Source: an uncultured bacterium (lineage in GTDB: Bacteria > Auribacterota > JACPWU01). Taken from it: a stretch of 32,000 nt of DNA. The stretch lies in the NCBI GenBank assembly GCA_964640155.1, contig CAZXEQ010000009.1, forward strand, positions 1-32,000. The letters run 5' to 3'. Shown here piece by piece: positions 3,267 through 28,988 of this stretch. Below the pieces are notes generated by a model, which saw nothing but the letters and a program-made list of their open reading frames with translations, was not told the DNA's origin and ran no database searches. The position numbers and the translations under genes were made by a program. Positions within the stretch are counted from its first letter, which is position 1; every line of letters begins with the position of its first letter.

Positions 3267-3529
3267 TGAGAAATGTGTATAAAATCGGGTGACCAACGAA
3301 TCCTAATGATGAGCGATCGCACTCGAGTGAAAGCAACGAAGGCAAAGACACCCCCTTTTGAAGTTCATCTATTGCTTTATCAAAAAGAAAGTTATATTAA
3401 TTTCCTTTACGGTCGCTGGAATGCGTACGAGGGAAGATCGCAAATCATGATTCGTTGGGCAGGACCCGTTCTTCTCTTTTTAAGTTCGATTGGCTCGCAA
3501 GGACAAACGAACGTGTCTGAACACTCTCA
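3267..3529 (+). repeat. GC-rich structured element, type A copy 1 (core 3287..3467 plus 3' module 3479..3527)
   Basis: The core runs GGGTGA-CCAACGAATC ... GATTCGTTGG-GCAGGACCC. Its lower stem is 10 bp, a 3-nt bulge, 5 bp, a 2x2 loop, then 6 bp, around an AT-rich centre. Outer pairing is TGAGA(aat)GTGT 3267..3278 with ACACTCTCA 3521..3529. A second hairpin is GTTCGATT 3484..3491 / AAACGAAC 3505..3512, followed by the mini-hairpin GTGT-ctga-ACAC. The core matches inverted copy 7011..7189: 1 mismatch in the first 67 nt, 1 in the last 57 nt, and a divergent centre. Confidence 0.85.
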
Positions 3530-3537
3530 TAAATATC

Positions 3538-4269
3538 CTATTCAGATATAGACTTTCTATCTTTTAAGACAGGAATCAATATATATATGCTAATAGGCAA
3601 AATCAAAATGAACGCTAAACGCTTAATTTCCATCGCTGCTTCTTTTCCAAGAACGCAATGAAGACTCCACATACGCATGAGAATAGCAACAATGATCCAC
3701 ATGCAAAAAGAACCATATTCCTTATTGAGCAATCGTTTCCAGGAAAAATTCATGTTCTGAATAGAAGTTTTGAATCCTTTCCAATTCGGCCAAATACGAT
3801 TCACACGTTGGCAATAATCCTCATATTCTGAACCAAATTTTTGTCTTAAAAAATTCTCTTCAGCGGCAATCAGCGAAGCATAAATCAAAAAAAACAATGG
3901 AATACCAATCCAATAGATCAAATGTGCGTTTACAATCAGAGAAAGGCCAACCAAAATAATAAAGTTTCCTAAATACAACGGATTCCTTGAATGAGAAAAA
4001 ACGCCTCCTGTCACCAATCGATCTGCATAAACTTTTTTGTTAACCCCTCCTCGCACAATATAATCATACCCGACTGTTAATGCCCTTAGAATCTGGCCTG
4101 CCATGGCAACAAAAAATCCACCTATCACAAGCCAAACACTTAAATCATATCTTCCACATGGAAAAATCGGTTTTGAAAAAAGCAGGAGTCCAAGAAAAAT
4201 CACGGGAAAAAGAAAATCTCGATAGTAGAAGAAAAAATTGCCCAATCGAATCAAAATTTTAGATTTCAT
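3538..4269 (-). CDS. ICMT/PEMT-family integral membrane methyltransferase
   Basis: 243 aa and multi-pass hydrophobic. LVTGGVFSHSRNPLYLGNF and EENFLRQKFGSEYEDYCQRV match the isoprenylcysteine carboxyl / phospholipid methyltransferase signature. Its ATG overlaps the cmoA stop in an ATGA arrangement (4266..4269). Confidence 0.8.
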   Translation of the reverse strand: MKSKILIRLGNFFFYYRDFLFPVIFLGLLLFSKPIFPCGRYDLSVWLVIGGFFVAMAGQILRALTVGYDYIVRGGVNKKVYADRLVTGGVFSHSRNPLYLGNFIILVGLSLIVNAHLIYWIGIPLFFLIYASLIAAEENFLRQKFGSEYEDYCQRVNRIWPNWKGFKTSIQNMNFSWKRLLNKEYGSFCMWIIVAILMRMWSLHCVLGKEAAMEIKRLAFILILPISIYILIPVLKDRKSISE

Positions 4270-7010: not shown

Positions 7011-7189
7011 GGGTCCTGCCCAACGAATCATGATTTGCGATCTTCTCTCGTACGCATTCCAGCGACCATAAAGAAATTGATTTAACTTTCGGTTTGCTAA
7101 AGTAAGAGATGAGCTTTGAAGAGGGTGTCTTTACCTTCGTTGCTTTCACTCGAGTGCGATCGCTCATCATTAGGATTCGTTGGTCACCC
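7011..7189 (-). repeat. GC-rich structured element, type A copy 2 (core only, inverted relative to copy 1)
   Basis: The reverse complement begins GGGTGACCAACGAATCC and ends GATTCGTTGGGCAGGACCC. Both flanks are near-identical to 3287..3467. The 55-nt centre is divergent and 2 nt shorter. Confidence 0.85.
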
Positions 7190-7240: not shown

Positions 7241-7379
7241 ATCGTTCAATAAAGCGTGAAGACCATTGGAAATCGAGTGAGCATGGCATCCCGATATTCA
7301 TCGGGATGAACGAGATTTCCTTTGAGTTCGTTTACCTCGCAGGGGGAAACGAACGTGTCTGAACACTCTGTTGAACGAT
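7241..7379 (+). repeat. structured element type D (different body, same 3' module as A1)
   Basis: Closing stem ATCGTTCAA 7241..7249 / TTGAACGAT 7371..7379. Hairpin 1 is GGAAATC 7268..7274 / GATTTCC 7314..7320, enclosing CATCCCGA 7287..7294 / TCGGGATG 7301..7308. Hairpin 2 is GTTCGTTT 7326..7333 / AAACGAAC 7347..7354. Segment 7321..7369 matches 3479..3527 at 42 of 49 positions, and the last 23 are identical. Confidence 0.75.
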
Positions 7380-11030: not shown

Positions 11031-11592
11031 AGGGTTTAGCAATTCCTGCAATAGCAAATCCAGCTAAAATCCATCCCATCACGAGATCTGCACACGTAAC
11101 CAATGTATATTTGATTTCAAAACCCCACCAATTCCAATAAGGAATATGCCCTACAATCGCTGCTGCCAAACCAAAAAGCGTGACAAACAAAACACGTTTA
11201 GAATAGGACAAACCTTTTGTTTGAAGTAAAAGCCATGCCACTAATAAAGAAGCAAGCACTTGAGTCAAAAATCCTATTCCCATTTGTGGCCCCATTCCTC
11301 CCTTACAACCTTTTTGATGAATAGAGGCAAAAATAAAAGGACCTTCTTTCATTTTTTCTTCCATGTTTTTTGTAGCGCCATCGGTTGTGGATTGTTCGTT
11401 GTTATTATGACAAAAAGGATACATATACATTCCATCTTTAGAGACATTATCCAAAACAACTTGTGTAACAGATGTTTCATTTCTAAAAGAATTAAGTGTC
11501 ATCATATGCCATGGTAATACCATCCAGGATAAAGAACCCCAAGCAAAAATAATAACGGCACCCGCAATTGCACTAAAGATCAATTTTTTCAT
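11029..11592 (-). CDS. hypothetical integral membrane protein
   Basis: 187 aa with an N-terminal hydrophobic segment and several C-terminal TM helices. It overlaps the upstream gene by 4 nt. I recognise no family. Confidence 0.6.
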   Translation of the reverse strand: MKKLIFSAIAGAVIIFAWGSLSWMVLPWHMMTLNSFRNETSVTQVVLDNVSKDGMYMYPFCHNNNEQSTTDGATKNMEEKMKEGPFIFASIHQKGCKGGMGPQMGIGFLTQVLASLLVAWLLLQTKGLSYSKRVLFVTLFGLAAAIVGHIPYWNWWGFEIKYTLVTCADLVMGWILAGFAIAGIAKP

Positions 11593-17523: not shown

Positions 17524-18609
17524 TCAAGTAGAACAGCTCACTAAATCTTCTAACTTTTTTATGATTATTTCTTCTTGAACAATGTTAACAGCACTTACCA
17601 ATTGTTTAATAAGAAACCTCTGTATTGTATCAATTTGACCTAAAACCCTATCGTCTTTATCAAGGATTTCCCAAATATGACTAAAATCGACTTTTCCTTT
17701 TCCATGACGCCATAATATATAGTTTAAAATGATCTCTGCTTCTCTCAATCTTAAAGCAGCCTTTCGAAAGTCTAAATGATGTTCACATTCGTCAAGAAAT
17801 GCTGATAAATAAGCATTTGCAAGAGTAAGAAGATGCGAAAAAGCTGCCATTTCCCCTTCAAAATAAAAAGGGCCTCGAATTTGAACTCCTCCATAAGCAA
17901 GTAACTTCATAAAAGCCATGTCTGGACCTTTCCCTCTCAAAAAGTCAGACTCTTCTACCACTTGAACATCTAGAACCTTTTCTTCTCCCAAAACTTCATA
18001 TGCTAATCTCGCAGCAGAATGAAAAGGCCTTTTTTTAGTAACTATCATAAAATCTATATCTTCAGAAGCCTCCATTATTTTACGAATATAAGAAGGTTCT
18101 AATTTCAAACCAGCCCATAACCAACTGCCATATAAAAAAATGCCTTTGATATCACCTTCATCAATCCCAAAAGCATCCGCGATATCCGAAAGAACGAATC
18201 CCAATAAATCATCTGCCTCTTCAACTTTATTAAGAACATGTAATTGAAAAACGTCTCGATCCTCTGGTCTTAGTAAAATAAATCTCCAGGCTCTTTCATA
18301 AAAATTAAAGCAGCAGTGATATAGACTTTCTGGATAGGTTTTAGGAGAAGTTGTATTAAAACTTGGGAAACGTTTGGTTAGTATTGAAAAATTAGCCGAT
18401 TGAAAAACTTCTTCCAAAAGATCTTCAGAAAAACCCGTAAGTTTCGAAGCTTCTCGAGTATCTCTTTTTAATAATGCTTGGGCAGCTTTTCGAAAATTTC
18501 TTTCAAATTTTCTATTTTCTACTTTAGACCATGGAGCCAGAGCATACAGAGGGAAAGATAAAGAGAAAAAGAGAACTCCCATTAAAAGGTATCTTAAGAG
18601 AGATTTCAT
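17524..18609 (-). CDS. signal-peptide protein with a Pol-beta-type nucleotidyltransferase-like core
   Basis: N-terminal MKSLLRYLLMGVLFFSLSFPLYALA. Then LYGS .. EDIDFMIV .. LDVQVV, which reads as a GS-x(n)-DxD..D NTase pattern, followed by a helical C-terminal domain. It starts 5 nt downstream of the mqnC stop. Confidence 0.45.
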   Translation of the reverse strand: MKSLLRYLLMGVLFFSLSFPLYALAPWSKVENRKFERNFRKAAQALLKRDTREASKLTGFSEDLLEEVFQSANFSILTKRFPSFNTTSPKTYPESLYHCCFNFYERAWRFILLRPEDRDVFQLHVLNKVEEADDLLGFVLSDIADAFGIDEGDIKGIFLYGSWLWAGLKLEPSYIRKIMEASEDIDFMIVTKKRPFHSAARLAYEVLGEEKVLDVQVVEESDFLRGKGPDMAFMKLLAYGGVQIRGPFYFEGEMAAFSHLLTLANAYLSAFLDECEHHLDFRKAALRLREAEIILNYILWRHGKGKVDFSHIWEILDKDDRVLGQIDTIQRFLIKQLVSAVNIVQEEIIIKKLEDLVSCST

Positions 18610-21821: not shown

Positions 21822-23266
21822 TAAAATCCTAATTCTTTCCACATCCCATCTACTTTTGCTTTTACAGCAGCATCCATCACAATTTCATCAGGCCAATCCC
21901 GAGTAAACCCTTCTTCTTTCCACTTGCGTGTGGCATCAATACCCACTTTACTTCCTAAAGCAGGTAAGCGCGCAGCATGATCTAAAACATCTACCGGCCC
22001 ATGCGTAAAAAGAAAATCACGTTCTGGATCAATGTGATTTAACGCCTTCCAAGCTACTTCCTTGACATCATGAACATTCACATCTTTATCTACGATAACA
22101 ACTACTTTTGCGAAACAAAGTTGATTAAGGCCCCAAACAGCGCTCATCACTTTCTTAGCTTGCCCCGGATATCGCTTATCAATCGACATGATTAATAAAT
22201 TATGAAATACGCCTTCTGCTGGCATATTCATGTCCACCAATTCTGGCAATTGCTTTTTAAGCAAAGGTAAAAAAATACGTTCCGTTGTTTTACCCAGAAA
22301 AAAGTCTTCTTGCAAGGGCTTTCCAACAATAATGGTTGGATAAATGGGATTCTCTCTCATGGTCATTGCTGTCACATGAAAAACAGGGTATTGATCGGCT
22401 AATGAATAAAATCCTGTATGATCTCCAAAAGGTCCTTCTTGTCGCAATTCTGTAGGATCAACATAACCTTCCAAAACAATTTGAGAATTGGCTGGAACTT
22501 CCAAATCAATCGTCTGACATTTCACCATTTCAACTGGCACATTCCGAATAAAACCTGCCAACATCATTTCATCTACACCTTCAGGAAGAGGAGCTGAAGC
22601 TGAATAAATCACAGCGGGATCTGGTCCCAAAGCCACCGCCACTTCGACTCGTTTTCCAAGCGCTTTTGCCTTATGAAAATGAGCGGCGCCTCCCTTGTGA
22701 ATTTGCCAATGCATTCCAATTGTTTTTTCATCAAAAATTTGAAGTCGATACATGCCATAATTTGCAATTCCAGTCTCTGGATCTTTTGTAATCACGACAG
22801 GAAGTGTAATGTATCGACCTGCATCTTGAGGCCAACATTTCAAGGCAGGAATTTCAAAAAGGGAGAATTGATCTTTTTTAATAATTTCCTGGCAGGGACC
22901 TCGACGCACTGATTTTGGTTTTAATGCTCTCAAAGTTTGAAGCATGGGAAGCATTTGAACCGTTTCCATAAAACCGGAGGGCATTTTGGGTTCCAAAAAA
23001 ACATTCACACGTTCAGCCAATGCTTCAAGACTTTCAACACCTAAAGCCATTGCCATTCGCTTTTCTGTGCCAAAGGTATTAATTAAAACCGGAATGTTTG
23101 AACCTTTTACTTTTTCAAAAAGAAGCGCAGGTCCACCTGCTTTTGTCACACGATCCGTGATCTCAGTAATTTCCAAAATAGGATCCACTTCTTGAGAAAT
23201 TCTCTTAAGTTCTCCCTGTTTTTCCAAAGCTCTTATAAAATCGTTCAAATCCTGATATGCATGCAT
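21821..23266 (-). CDS. UbiD-family decarboxylase (menaquinone-associated, MqnL-like)
   Basis: 481 aa, full-length UbiD fold. It is the first gene of the mqnE-mqnA-mqnC operon. Confidence 0.85.
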   Translation of the reverse strand: MHAYQDLNDFIRALEKQGELKRISQEVDPILEITEITDRVTKAGGPALLFEKVKGSNIPVLINTFGTEKRMAMALGVESLEALAERVNVFLEPKMPSGFMETVQMLPMLQTLRALKPKSVRRGPCQEIIKKDQFSLFEIPALKCWPQDAGRYITLPVVITKDPETGIANYGMYRLQIFDEKTIGMHWQIHKGGAAHFHKAKALGKRVEVAVALGPDPAVIYSASAPLPEGVDEMMLAGFIRNVPVEMVKCQTIDLEVPANSQIVLEGYVDPTELRQEGPFGDHTGFYSLADQYPVFHVTAMTMRENPIYPTIIVGKPLQEDFFLGKTTERIFLPLLKKQLPELVDMNMPAEGVFHNLLIMSIDKRYPGQAKKVMSAVWGLNQLCFAKVVVIVDKDVNVHDVKEVAWKALNHIDPERDFLFTHGPVDVLDHAARLPALGSKVGIDATRKWKEEGFTRDWPDEIVMDAAVKAKVDGMWKELGF

Positions 23267-23368
23267 ACTAAAGCCCTCTCCTGTTTCCCACGAAGCTGTA
23301 AGTATGCTTGGTTAATCATAAAAAATCAAATATTAAGAAAGAAAATTTACAGAGATAATCCCGTATAC

Positions 23369-23494
23369 AAAAGTGTGTTCTTATTAGCTAAGAAACGGGT
23401 CCTGCCACTCGTCAGCCCCACCGTGCTCACTAAAAGTTGCGCGCGGCGGGGCTCCCCGTCGAGTGTCACCCGTATTTGTAAAGGACACACTTTT
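23369..23494 (-). repeat. GC-rich structured element, type B copy 1 (core 23397..23471)
   Basis: Core reverse complement: GGGTGA-CACTCG-ACGGGGAGCCCCGCCGCGCGCAACTTTTAGTGAGCACGGTGGGGCTGA-CGAGTG-GCAGGACCC. Outer helix is AAAAGTGTGT / ACACACTTTT (23485..23494 with 23369..23378). Confidence 0.85.
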
Positions 23495-23534
23495 TTGCAC
23501 AAGATCCAAGAAATTCTTCATTCAATTCCACAAG

Positions 23535-23695
23535 TGAAAATGGGGTGACCCGACTGGGGGTTCCCCATCGAGCGCCAGCAAGCGTCGCCTAAAACCTGAG
23601 AATCCTCATTAAATGCCCTGCCGACGCTGACCCCACAGGGGCTATAACTACATGTGCCGTCGATGGGGGTGAGGAGGGGCAGGACCCCATTTTCA
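23535..23695 (+). repeat. GC-rich structured element, type C (core 23542..23688)
   Basis: TGAAAATGGGGT-GA-CCC ... GGG-G-CAGG-ACCCCATTTTCA, with a 12-bp closing helix. Internal helices are CCCCATCGA/TCGATGGGG and AGCGTCG/CGACGCT around an AT-rich loop. Confidence 0.8.
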
Positions 23696-23831
23696 TGAAT
23701 TTTGGCAATCTCTACCATTGATTCATCTTGCTTTATGGCTCATCTTAACGTATAGAGTAGGAGTTCAATGCTGTTTTGGGATATAATTTTGTCTCTTTTG
23801 AGTCTCTTAACCCAAATTTTATGAGTCAACT

Positions 23832-24812
23832 ATGCATACAGAAATACTGAATGAACTTGAAGGCTTTATTGAAGAACAACTTCATTTGCTAAAGTCCGTT
23901 AAAGACTCTTGGCAGCCCAGCGATATTTTGCCAGACATGAGTGATGAATGCTGGCACGAAAAAGTTGAAGAATTACGCACAAAAACATCGAATTTATCCG
24001 ATGAACTTCTCGTCGTCCTTATTGGGAATACCGTTACAGAAGAGGCCTTACCCTCTTATCAAACCTGGTTAAATCGTTTTGAAGGCATGAGCGATAAAAC
24101 AGGTGTCAGCTCTAATCCTTGGTCTCTTTGGACAAGGGCTTGGACTGCTGAAGAAAACCGTCATGGTGAACTTCTTAATAAATACTTATATCTTTCTGGG
24201 CGAGTTAACATGCATGCGGTTGAAATCACCACACAAAATCTCATTAGAAATGGCTTTGATGTACGATCCGGAGACAGTTTCTATAAAGCCTTGGTTTATG
24301 CTGCGTTTCAAGAAAGAGGAACAAAAATTTCTCATCGTAATGTAGGTTTATTGGCTGAAAAATGTGGTGAAACAACCTTGAGCAAAATGTGCGTTTTGAT
24401 TGCAGGAGATGAAGCTCGACATGAAGAAGCTTACAAGAGATTTTTCGCCAAAATACTCGAACTAGATCCTTCTCGAGCTCTATGTGCTTTTGCAGACATG
24501 ATGAAACAAAAAGTCATCATGCCAGCCCGTCTCATGTCCGATGAAACAGATCGAGACTTATTTAATCAATTCTCTGTCGTTGCACAGAAAATTGGTGTTT
24601 ATACCATTCATGACTATGTTGAAATCATTGACCACTTGATTAATCTCTGGGGCATTCCAACCCTTTCTACTTCTTCCCCAGAAAGTGCGCAAGCACAAGA
24701 ATATCTTTGCAATTTGCCAGGACGGTATACAGGGAAAATTGAACGACTGGAAGAATCTTTGGCTAAACAACCCAGCAAATCTTTTCGATGGATATTTGAT
24801 CGTTGCGCTTAA
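23832..24812 (+). CDS. soluble acyl-ACP desaturase (diiron)
   Basis: 326 aa. EENRHG and DEARHE diiron ligand motifs at typical spacing. Confidence 0.85.
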   Translation: MHTEILNELEGFIEEQLHLLKSVKDSWQPSDILPDMSDECWHEKVEELRTKTSNLSDELLVVLIGNTVTEEALPSYQTWLNRFEGMSDKTGVSSNPWSLWTRAWTAEENRHGELLNKYLYLSGRVNMHAVEITTQNLIRNGFDVRSGDSFYKALVYAAFQERGTKISHRNVGLLAEKCGETTLSKMCVLIAGDEARHEEAYKRFFAKILELDPSRALCAFADMMKQKVIMPARLMSDETDRDLFNQFSVVAQKIGVYTIHDYVEIIDHLINLWGIPTLSTSSPESAQAQEYLCNLPGRYTGKIERLEESLAKQPSKSFRWIFDRCA

Positions 24813-24836
24813 ACAATTAAATTTAAAAAATCAAAG

Positions 24837-26933: not shown

Positions 26934-28622
26934 CTATTCTACTTTTATCAATCCCAAAGTAATGTCATCTGCTTGGGCTTCATTCTGGGCGTGTTCAGTA
27001 ATTCTATCAAGAATTTTTTCCATAATGATATGTGTTTTTTGATTCCCGATCTGAGTAATGATTTCTTTCAAGGCTTCAAGGAATTTTTCTTTTCCATAAG
27101 ATTGCTGTTTGGAATCTTGGGCTTCCTCCACACCATCTGTATATAAAATAACTTGATCCCCTTTTTTTAGGGACAAAGTATATTCTTCCGGCATTTCATC
27201 ATCCGTCCATTTTGAAAAACCCAAAGCAATGCCCTTTGGAGAAAACTCATGCAATTGAACGTCTGGACCTCGATATACAATCAAAGGTAAATGTCCTGCC
27301 CTAGAAAAAGTAAGGGTATTCTGTTTTACATCGAGAAAAGCCAAAATAGCGCTGATAAACATATCTTGTTTCATATCTGGAACCAAAAGATTGTTCACTT
27401 CTTTTAAGAGGCCTGCCGTACTCGTCGCACCCAAGGCTCTGGACTTCAATGTCGAACGAAACATCGCCATCACCAAAGCACCTGGAACCCCCTTACCACT
27501 TACATCTGCAATCACCAAAGCTAATTTTTCAGGGCTTACCCAAAACCAATCATAATAATCTCCGCCTACTTCTTGGGCTGGCAAACTTCTAAAAGAGAAA
27601 TCAAAACCTTCTATTTTTGGAAAAGTACGGGGTAATAAAATCTGCTGAATTTCACGAGCGATCTGTAATTCATGTTTGATGCGCTCCTGATCACGAATCT
27701 CGCGGTAAAGCCTAGCATTTTCTAATGCAATCGCCGCTTGACTTGCAATCGCTGTTAAAAGCTTTAGATCGTCTTCTTCAAAATGACTGATTTTAATCAA
27801 ACTATCACAATAAATAAGTCCTAAAATCTGATTTTTAATAGCAATGGGGACACACATGGCAGATTTAATCCCATACGCATAAAAACTCTCTGCATTCTTA
27901 AAACGATCATCCAAACCTGTATGGGCACAAATCACACCCACGTGTTCTTTCAAAACCGTTTCAACAATGCTACGACTGATTGCAATGGGAGAATATCCTT
28001 TTTTTTGCTCTGAACGTTTTACAATTCGAGGGACTAATTCTTGTGTTTTTTCATCTCGGAATAAAATCACGTAGCGATCCGCATGAATCACCTCCATCAC
28101 CATATCTACAATTTTTACAATTAAATTTTCTTCATTTAAAATCGAATTAAAAACATTTCCTGATTTATAAAGGATAGAAAGATTTTTTGCCGTTTTCTTA
28201 AATTGATCCAATTTCAAACTGCGTCCGTCTATATCTAAAAATGTAGAATGCTTACAATCTAAAGAGCTCGTGACACGTGTTTGAGGAGCTTCTTCTAACA
28301 CAATGGAAACTTCTTCTTTAGATAAGGATTCTAAAGAGGAATTTTCCGATACTATTTTCAAACGTGTGTCTCCTACAACAATTTCATCCCCCTCTTTAAT
28401 CACACACTGCGTTACCAGCTTCCCATTGACATAGGTACCATTTGAACTATCCAGATCTTGAAGAAAATATTGATCTTTTTGTTTTTGAATACGCACATGA
28501 ACCCGAGAAACTCTGGGGTCTTGTAAAGGCAATTGATTGGTAGGATCTCTGCCAATTGAAAGAGTTTCTCCCAGAGGAAAAACATAATCCTTCTTAAAAC
28601 CTTGCATGACTAAAACATTCAT
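26934..28622 (-). CDS. FHA-GAF-PP2C (SpoIIE-type) phosphatase
   Basis: N-terminal FHA (LSIGRD .. VSRVHV .. DLDSSNGTYVNG), a central GAF-like region and a C-terminal PP2C/SpoIIE domain (GGDYYDW .. ADVSGKGVPGAL .. DGVEE). Confidence 0.85.
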   Translation of the reverse strand: MNVLVMQGFKKDYVFPLGETLSIGRDPTNQLPLQDPRVSRVHVRIQKQKDQYFLQDLDSSNGTYVNGKLVTQCVIKEGDEIVVGDTRLKIVSENSSLESLSKEEVSIVLEEAPQTRVTSSLDCKHSTFLDIDGRSLKLDQFKKTAKNLSILYKSGNVFNSILNEENLIVKIVDMVMEVIHADRYVILFRDEKTQELVPRIVKRSEQKKGYSPIAISRSIVETVLKEHVGVICAHTGLDDRFKNAESFYAYGIKSAMCVPIAIKNQILGLIYCDSLIKISHFEEDDLKLLTAIASQAAIALENARLYREIRDQERIKHELQIAREIQQILLPRTFPKIEGFDFSFRSLPAQEVGGDYYDWFWVSPEKLALVIADVSGKGVPGALVMAMFRSTLKSRALGATSTAGLLKEVNNLLVPDMKQDMFISAILAFLDVKQNTLTFSRAGHLPLIVYRGPDVQLHEFSPKGIALGFSKWTDDEMPEEYTLSLKKGDQVILYTDGVEEAQDSKQQSYGKEKFLEALKEIITQIGNQKTHIIMEKILDRITEHAQNEAQADDITLGLIKVE

Positions 28623-28712
28623 AGGGGAAACTTTCGATATAAAGTTTCTACGAAACCATTATAGCGTTTTTAATTCTACTTTACTATCAAAATGGGGATT
28701 GTGGATCCTGTT

Positions 28713-28836
28713 AAGAGTGTGTTTTTTATATATGTGGGTGACACTCGACGGGGAGCCCCGCCGCGCGCAACTTTTAGTGAGCACGGTCGGGCTGACGAGT
28801 GGCAGGACCTACTACTTTTCAAAAAAACACACTCTT
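28713..28836 (+). repeat. GC-rich structured element, type B copy 2 (core 28736..28810)
   Basis: The 75-nt core differs from the B1 core at 2 positions. Outer helix is AAGAGTGTGTTTTTT 28713..28727 / AAAAAACACACTCTT 28822..28836, 15 bp and perfect. The linkers have similar length to B1 (13 nt; 16 vs 18 nt) but divergent sequence. Confidence 0.88.
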
Positions 28837-28988
28837 ATCTCCAGCACATCAACAATAAAAAATAAAAATCAGATATGTTTTTAGATTTCAAATCACTGTT
28901 TTTAATAGTCAATTTCAAAACATTATCTTACAATTTCTCTAACATCGTGTTACGCACTTCTCACAACGCATCACACAGAGCGAATTTT

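Follow-up and report, generated by a model that had tools for sequence, protein, structure and literature searches.

A superfamily of GC-rich hairpin repeats, probably mobile, shared by PVC-group and Woesebacteria genomes

Introduction

The first 32,000 nucleotides of contig CAZXEQ010000009.1 (assembly GCA_964640155.1), from an uncultured bacterium of the Auribacterota and referred to here as the window, are ordinary chromosome of about 38.5% GC. Its genes include leuA, ilvC, ilvN, queG, queD, thiC and ubiD, together with those for sulfite reductase, the futalosine pathway, an acyl-ACP desaturase, a Ser/Thr kinase, a SpoIIE phosphatase and a glycogen-debranching enzyme (GDE). Five GC-rich islands also lie in the window, which a first-pass annotation of the sequence had described as three unrelated hairpin bodies closed by one asymmetric junction. 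These five islands are members of one superfamily of non-coding GC-rich hairpin repeats, 75–185 nt long, of which 13 copies were found in six genomes belonging to the Planctomycetes–Verrucomicrobia–Chlamydiae (PVC) group, as metagenome-assembled genomes (MAGs), and to Woesebacteria of the candidate phyla radiation (CPR). The copies within a genome are near-identical, are missing in syntenic relatives, are present in unrelated phyla and are tolerated in-frame inside leuS, and the family is probably a mobile one.

Results

Five elements defined by two end motifs

The elements end in GGGTGAC and GGCAGGACCC on the folding strand (GGGTCCTGCC on the opposite strand). GGGTGAC occurs five times in the window against 1.17 expected, exclusively at the elements, and exact GGCAGGACC also occurs five times, every one at an element, with an expectation of ~0.03 per 11 kb. 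The ten motif sites pair off into exactly five elements (Table 1), at the sites where the first-pass annotation had placed the five cores, with type C refined to 23543–23687. The first and last bases of the identity between A1 and A2 are the start of GGGT and the end of ACCC, all similarity being lost exactly outside the conserved end motifs; the ends are 94–95% identical, and the middle is more diverged, with indels. Identity between B1 and B2 likewise starts at GGGT and stops at ACC(C), and the two cores have two differences, one interior and one at the last base (ACCT for ACCC, which gives a G-T closing pair).

Table 1. Hairpin elements and composite units in the window
Feature	Position	Strand	Description
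Type A copy A1	3287..3467	+	181 nt; P1 GGGT/ACCC, loop GA/GCAGG, P2 CCAACGAATC/GATTCGTTGG, AT-richer variable apex
Type A copy A2	7011..7189	-	179 nt; inverted relative to A1
Type B copy B1	23397..23471	-	75-nt core; 93 bits with model R1
Composite unit around B1	23371..23494	-	degenerate outer inverted arms AAAAAAGTGTGTCC ... GAACACACTTTT
Type C copy	23543..23687	+	145 nt; found by model R1, built without C, at E=0.023
Type B copy B2	28736..28810	+	75-nt core; 87 bits with model R1
Composite unit around B2	28713..28836	+	outer arms TAAGAGTGTGTTTTTT ... AAAAAAACACACTCTTA, TA on both outer sides

A1 and A2 form an inverted pair that brackets three genes (3.5 kb) with the 3' ends facing inward, and B1 and B2 form a second inverted pair, bracketing C and three genes (5.3 kb) with the 5' ends facing inward; both pairs could mediate inversions. 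Three mechanically called open reading frames (ORFs) of 92–118 aa span elements, at 3273–3551(+), 23192–23548(+) and 28606–28884(+), because stop codons are rare in GC-rich sequence, and gene callers could annotate such frames as hypothetical proteins. When the B element was translated in every open frame and the joined translations served as a protein query, no ORF spanning copies was found.

Relations among the types

Types B and C agree at 20 of their last 23 nt (GGGGSTGASGAGKGGCAGGACCC), and a relation is also visible at the 5' ends (GGGTGAC..CGAC.GGGG..CCCC). Together with two further types, D and E, which were found outside the window, they have a common 21-nt 3' foot, GGGSTGMSGAGBGRCAGGACC, and a related 5' foot. 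All four are built to one architecture, in which P1 (GGGT/ACCC) is followed by the asymmetric junction J1 (GA/GCAGG), P2a of 3 bp, a tandem GA/GA step, P2b of 2–3 bp, a 5' G-rich bulge, a GC-rich P3 and a variable apex. In C, the parts beyond J1 are P2a CCC/GGG, the tandem GA/GA, P2b CT/AG, an internal loop, P3 CCCCATCGA/TCGATGGGG and a variable apex. In B1, P1 and J1 (GA/GCAGG) lead into P2 CACTCG/CGAGTG, a 5' G-rich bulge, P3 AGCCCCGCCG/CGGTGGGGCT and a 20-nt loop, the tandem GA/GA step being replaced in type B by Watson-Crick TC/GA.

A covariance model trained on B, D and E only (R1) recovered all four C-type copies outside its training set, that is, the window copy and three copies at locus L126 of a relative (E=3e-4, 1.4e-3 and 0.23). 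Type A was not recovered in this search and has only GGGTGAC and GGGCAGGACCC in common with the other types. As the homology among B, C, D and E covers both ends, the contrast drawn between one junction and unrelated bodies rests mostly on type A, which is indeed unrelated beyond the junction.

Fold of the foot

In every one of the five window copies the minimum free energy (MFE) fold pairs GGGT with ACC(C) and lengthens this helix outward by copy-specific pairs, as had been proposed, with fold-energy z-scores of -2.1 to -4.3 relative to shuffled sequences. Each copy is one long imperfect hairpin, whose inner helix begins right after an asymmetric loop. The asymmetry noted in the first-pass annotation is real, but the unpaired bases are not GA and CAGG: the loop is 5'-GA-3' opposite 5'-GCAGG-3' (2x5), the 3' side having five nucleotides because the first G of GGCAGG partners the C of GGGTGAC, a C-G pair that had been counted twice.

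The pattern GGGTGAC, N55-85, GGCAGGACC gave at least 120 hits in viral contigs, all of them chance matches, and 120 of these served as a null control. Among them G1 was paired in 34%, any outward pair was present in 34% and an inner helix of at least 3 bp in 15%, as against 12/12, 11/12 and 12/12 respectively for the real copies. In an alignment of the foot from 11 copies (14 pairs, 500 shuffles), standard pairs fill 84% of cells, compared with 26–44% when the partner strand is slid. Eight of the 14 foot pairs have changed on both sides and the covariation score was reached by none of the 500 shuffles, although the counts overstate the number of independent events because related copies are included. 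The asymmetric junction is thus kept on covarying helices, in agreement with the earlier description.

Compensatory change is also seen within type C, where P3 of the window copy and those of L126 differ by three compensatory pairs (CCCCATCGA/TCGATGGGG versus CCCCGCTGA/TCAGCGGGG and CCCCACCAG/CTGGTGGGG). In L126 the two strands of the loop have changed in concert, GA/GCAGG having become GG/ACAGG (A-G exchanged for G-A adjoining P2), which is only suggestive because it is a single evolutionary event. The conserved foot amounts to about 25 nt per strand; its 3' strand is far better conserved than its 5' strand, and the apex varies freely. In the short types the fold energy favours the GGGTGAC strand by 1–12 kcal/mol, largely via the tandem GA, and a strand test by G-U counts and MFE gave no overall bias (G-U pairs 32 forward versus 43 reverse).

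In a kink-turn, a three-nucleotide bulge is followed directly by tandem sheared G-A pairs. This motif was considered after a 17.9-bit hit to U4atac and rejected, as its register shifts P1 by one and breaks the outward pairs of 10 of 11 copies, and as the tandem GA lies 3 bp from the loop, not directly after the bulge.

Flanks and outer arms

The bases at -1 and +1 pair in 10 of 11 copies through four pair types, and the flanking pairs differ between near-identical copies, being C-G in A1 versus A-T in A2, and AC with GT around B1 versus GT with AC around B2. Longer complementary flanks surround C, which is placed at the centre of a 16-bp palindrome formed by TGAAAATG and CATTTTCA (23535–23542 and 23688–23695), and a copy at locus L136, which lies within coding sequence between ATCC and GGAT. 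These flanks match as inverted complements and not as direct repeats, so they do not qualify as ordinary target-site duplications (TSDs). The 5' flanks vary (ATC, TGA, TAC, TGT, ATG and TGC, among others).

An outer inverted repeat, TTTAAAAGTGTGTCC...GGACACACTTTTAAA, encloses B1, B2 and two of the three L126 copies (4/13). Its arms are 15–21 bp long and stand at a constant distance from the core, 13–14 nt on the 5' side and 16–18 nt on the 3' side (13 and 18 nt in B1). They form perfect inverted repeats of 19–21 bp in L126 and are more diverged around B1 and B2 (units 23371–23494 and 28713–28836, 85% complementary), and TA is present on both outer sides in two of the four composites. The arms are identical in kind around different cores, type B in the window and C-type in L126. 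Elsewhere in about 150 kb the arm motif occurs at no intergenic site, its sole other match being inside a gene. The nine copies that have no outer arms are A1, A2, the window C, one L126 copy, the copy at locus L122 and all four Woesebacteria copies.

Distribution across genomes and empty sites

The PVC-group MAGs are labelled "Chlamydiae bacterium" or Candidatus Auribacterota at NCBI, and the closest homologues of the window UbiD (82–85% identity) carry the label 'MAG: Chlamydiae bacterium'. Among short-read contigs of the same organism (sample SRR8893623), Logan L125 starts inside B1 and Logan L001 inside B2, the contigs breaking as multi-copy repeats cause assemblies to do. The relative GCA_016178005.1 holds three C-type copies in the 21 kb of L126, two of them mutually inverted. 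No copies were present in the 43 kb of loci L127, L130 and L131, which come from relatives with 82–85% identical UbiD, and the orthologous GDE–SpoIIE spacer of the syntenic L131 is empty.

Further afield, a B-type pattern run against GTDB genomes had a sole hit, a B copy with 3 differences in 75 nt in a Candidatus Auribacterota MAG of the PVC group. The 3' 20-mer, run against JGI metagenomes, found one true locus (L123) and one chance match. The L123 contig, which its leucyl-tRNA synthetase (LeuRS) places in the CPR Woesebacteria, carries two copies, D and E, and the last 24 nt of D are identical to those of window B1 at 24/24 positions. A Hamming scan for diverged copies over 153 kb of loci gave nothing new.

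Comparison of window positions 23267–24836 with L131 (9858–10001) shows that the acyl-ACP desaturase gene (23832–24812), B1 and C are missing from L131, where the Ser/Thr kinase gene and ubiD are only 142 nt apart. These elements therefore lie at the edge of a lineage-specific gene insertion. At 11447–12929 of L126, brnT/brnA toxin-antitoxin genes and then a nucleotidyltransferase (NTase) gene come after a C-type copy, the block being inserted between ubiD and a radical-SAM mqn gene, which adjoin in the window, L130 and L131.

Copies inside and beside leuS

Three of the Woesebacteria copies lie in-frame and antisense within leuS, at two different sites. Copy D of L123 is located in the variable linker of LeuRS between the catalytic and anticodon-binding parts, and the corresponding segment of ~20–27 aa is missing in 12 of 14 close homologues. 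In one homologue (P0127, locus L135) the same linker contains an E-type copy in another reading frame, and in a second (P0176, locus L136) a D-type copy lies elsewhere, close to the zinc-binding motif, and encodes GPAARQPQIHPQGDTPALGLPGSRHP, similar to GPATRQPQIHPQGETPALVPPASRHP of L123. 'GDARR' peptide matches in two LeuRS homologues were considered as further insertions and rejected as native sequence. The spacer between leuS and comEA holds an 88-nt E copy in L123 and is empty in L135; at 1391–1396 of L123 this copy supplies the leuS stop codon (the TGA in its GGGTGAC) and the last residues (..IETG*), the homologues ending in ..NFVV* or ..NFVI*.

Orientation and genomic setting

Of the five window copies, four precede the next gene and share its sense. 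Over all 13 copies orientation is mixed, five being sense-upstream and the rest antisense, intragenic or in a 3' untranslated region, and the genes downstream have no common function. No promoter- or terminator-like sites were found at B1/C and B2. GC skew is negative throughout the window (cumulative -20.7) and the majority of genes are on the minus strand, which places the window within one replichore with the minus strand leading.

Database searches and rejected identities

Searches with Rfam covariance models, over the whole window at the gathering score and over three regions at E below 10, returned noise only, in keeping with the first-pass annotation, which had recognised no named RNA family. 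Blastn against plasmids and phages found no match to the elements and no parent insertion sequence (IS), and a degenerate 3' foot had only chance hits in viral contigs, in 65% GC coding DNA. A superficial likeness to the inverted repeat of the Tn3 family (GGGGTCTGAC...) was rejected, there being no 5-bp TSD and the ends differing by indels. The 3' end of 4.5S/signal recognition particle RNA (..GGCAGGGCCC) resembles the 3' end of the elements and was judged coincidental, the Rfam search being negative.

Other features of the window

A second repeat family is present at 3479–3527 and 7321–7369 (+), with 86% identity over 49 nt. Its members form a separate hairpin, GTTCG...CGAAC, and their terminal sequence, GTGTCTGAACACTCT, is similar to the outer-arm motif. 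The first copy is 12 nt 3' of A1; the second is separated from A2 by 132 nt and, given the orientation of A2, lies on its opposite side. A small perfect hairpin, CATCCCGAT-ATTC-ATCGGGATG, lies at 7287–7308 upstream of queG, and a related one, CCCGAT-TC-ATCGGG, is found upstream of the GDE gene of the relative (L126, about 2065–2080); the two may be instances of a further short palindromic repeat in these genomes. A 361-aa ORF (17524–18609, minus strand), flanked by a PilZ-domain gene and the mqn genes, has no Pfam match, and syntenic relatives have other genes at this position (DUF192 and a methyltransferase in L131). For two window proteins there was no exact match on record.

Discussion

The lineage-variable presence of the elements, at filled and empty sites, points to a mobile repeat. 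The first-pass annotation had reserved the name of an ordinary miniature inverted-repeat transposable element (MITE) for untranscribed elements whose presence varies between strains and whose sites carry target duplications; the variable presence was found, and direct TSDs were not. Its view that the islands are neither coding sequence nor simple MITEs with terminal inverted repeats (TIRs) holds, as there are no perfect TIRs with direct target duplications. It had also proposed a common factor that reads a folded single strand, which is a reasonable inference from an asymmetric junction kept on covarying helices. A catalytic or regulatory RNA is not favoured. Mixed orientation, the lack of promoter- or terminator-like sites and the antisense leuS copies favour instead a selfish element acting at the level of DNA, with the foot read on a folded single strand.

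On balance the elements are best explained, somewhat ahead of even odds, as non-autonomous mobile hairpins whose foot is the cis-acting site of a structure-specific enzyme. This enzyme would act in trans on the folded strand, more likely single-stranded DNA (ssDNA) than RNA. It might be an HUH/Y1-type transposase or a tyrosine recombinase encoded elsewhere, the choice of enzyme class being considerably more tentative. New copies would insert into the middle of short palindromes or into the tips of hairpins; alternatively, the 3' flank might be re-templated from the other flank by fold-back synthesis. By either route the flanks would become mutually complementary and yet differ from copy to copy, as is seen. 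A stronger version, in which the family represents a new class of hairpin transposon, is doubtful. Such an element would move as one folded strand, its asymmetric foot read by an enzyme that is either borne by elements elsewhere or universal in hosts; it would insert at palindrome tips or centres, spread across phyla as far apart as the PVC group and the CPR, and be built to sit in-frame in essential genes.

Several observations weigh against movement of this kind. No transposase, recombinase or HUH gene was seen in the window or in any fetched locus, so that a trans-acting enzyme is purely inferred, and neither a direct target duplication nor a conserved target sequence was found where these were looked for at the copies. 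Forward and reverse fold energies are similar in the long types, A and C, so that either strand may be the one that folds. Despite the uniform GC skew, the window elements are divided between the strands (three plus, two minus), which misfits the ssDNA strand bias of the IS200/IS605 type, in a small sample. Only 13 copies have been seen, and all of them come from individual loci, not from whole genomes. Finally, the cores of B1 and B2 are 97–99% identical and their outer arms only about 65–70%, a contrast that could stem from gene conversion, or from purifying selection on a core with a host function, and not from recent movement. The same contrast would arise if the hairpins invade an older TA-targeting MITE.

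The arms themselves suggest a more conventional origin, in which an ordinary DDE-type MITE with TTTAAAAGTGTGTCC ... GGACACACTTTTAAA as its outer TIRs is moved into TA by an IS630/Tc1-like transposase and the hairpin is cargo. The constant spacing of the arms around B1, B2 and two of the three L126 copies, their perfection in L126, the TA on both outer sides of half of the composites and the lack of other intergenic arm motifs are consistent with this. Yet most copies, including the three in leuS, have no arms, identity between copies drops at the hairpin foot and not at the arms, the same arms surround different cores, and no parent IS was found in plasmids or phages, which leaves this origin unlikely. 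A structured RNA family, acting as cis-regulatory leaders or small RNAs whose loop and tandem G-A bind a protein or form a catalytic core, would account for the sense-upstream position of most window copies, the purine-rich loops, the tandem GA that favours the GGGTGAC strand in the short types, the covarying helices and a core far better conserved than its flanks between B1 and B2. It is decidedly unlikely, since there is no Rfam match even at E below 10, the 13 copies are in mixed orientation before functionally unrelated genes, the three antisense leuS copies are translated as part of LeuRS, promoter- and terminator-like signals are missing, the kink-turn register is incompatible with the outward pairs, and syntenic relatives manage without the elements.

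Folded ssDNA hairpins that mark the borders of gene cassettes inserted by a tyrosine recombinase, in the manner of attC sites, form another candidate. In attC the core sites are R'' RYYYAAC and R' GTTRRRY. The likeness lies in the order of parts, a conserved outer helix being followed by an unpaired, asymmetric spacer, then by an inner helix and finally by a terminal structure that varies, with structure better conserved than sequence, and several copies border lineage-specific insertions (the desaturase gene next to B1 and C, and the brnT/brnA/NTase block in L126). GGGTGAC and GGCAGGACCC fit neither core site, however, and the copies are single or paired among housekeeping genes instead of in cassette arrays, with no integrase at any locus. 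The majority of copies, the leuS insertions and B2 among them, have no inserted gene beside them, and accessory genes enter these spacers also without an element (L127), which makes attC-like sites very improbable.

Among described repeats, the closest in kind to these non-autonomous hairpins are small palindromic interspersed repeats, under which the family is filed. Repetitive extragenic palindromes (REPs) are 20–40 nt long with a GTAG or CGTC tag at one end (PMC3733652). Like REPs and the REPIN-RAYT system, the present elements are imperfect hairpins with conserved unpaired foot nucleotides, strand asymmetry and a core without clear TIRs or direct TSDs; copies occur in pairs (B1 with C, and the two inverted copies in L126), and recognition of folded ssDNA is the working model. 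They differ in their length of 75–185 nt, in ends that carry no GTAG/CGTC tag, in the intragenic position of some copies and in that no RAYT (Y1 transposase) gene was seen in about 170 kb of window and loci. Bacterial MITEs (Correia/NEMIS, ERIC, QMITE, Nezha) are similarly small, non-coding, multi-copy and variably present, with conserved ends and a varying interior, and four of the present copies have TIR-like arms. The element ends are nevertheless not true inverted repeats (GGGT then GA versus GGGT then CCTGC), and there is no direct TSD at the core and no known parent IS. PATEs derived from IS200/IS605 have separate subterminal hairpins at their ends and a fixed tetra- or pentanucleotide target, whereas here a single hairpin is made by the two ends together and the 5' flanks are variable; nor do the three plus and two minus window copies, a small sample, follow the replication-direction bias of PATEs.

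Rickettsia palindromic elements (RPEs) insert in-frame in protein-coding genes and add a peptide (PMC10969869), as do the three leuS insertions at two sites. RPEs are also short palindromic hairpin repeats in several families, both intergenic and in-frame in housekeeping genes, with no known mobilising enzyme. Their hosts are Rickettsiales, as opposed to PVC-group MAGs and CPR Woesebacteria, and the present elements are GC-rich with an asymmetric conserved foot and a variable apex; no sequence relation is known, the two having been compared by description and not by sequence. The family thus resembles REPs, MITEs and RPEs in kind and has a sequence of its own. No named family fits and it appears previously undescribed, the nearest families having been compared by definition and RPEs not by sequence.

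To our knowledge, how hairpin repeats such as REPs and RPEs move is largely unsolved. The foot of the present elements is unusually well delimited: it spans about 25 nt on each strand, its unpaired bases are defined, it contains a tandem G-A step, and its 3' strand is the same in different phyla. It offers a concrete substrate for enzyme discovery. Short-read assemblies of uncultured PVC and CPR bacteria break at the elements, a concern for MAG quality, and the peptides of 20–30 residues that they add to LeuRS matter for the reading of insertions in CPR proteins. That Woesebacteria and PVC-group MAGs have a near-identical foot points to a recent exchange of DNA between lineages that are very distant and probably occur together.

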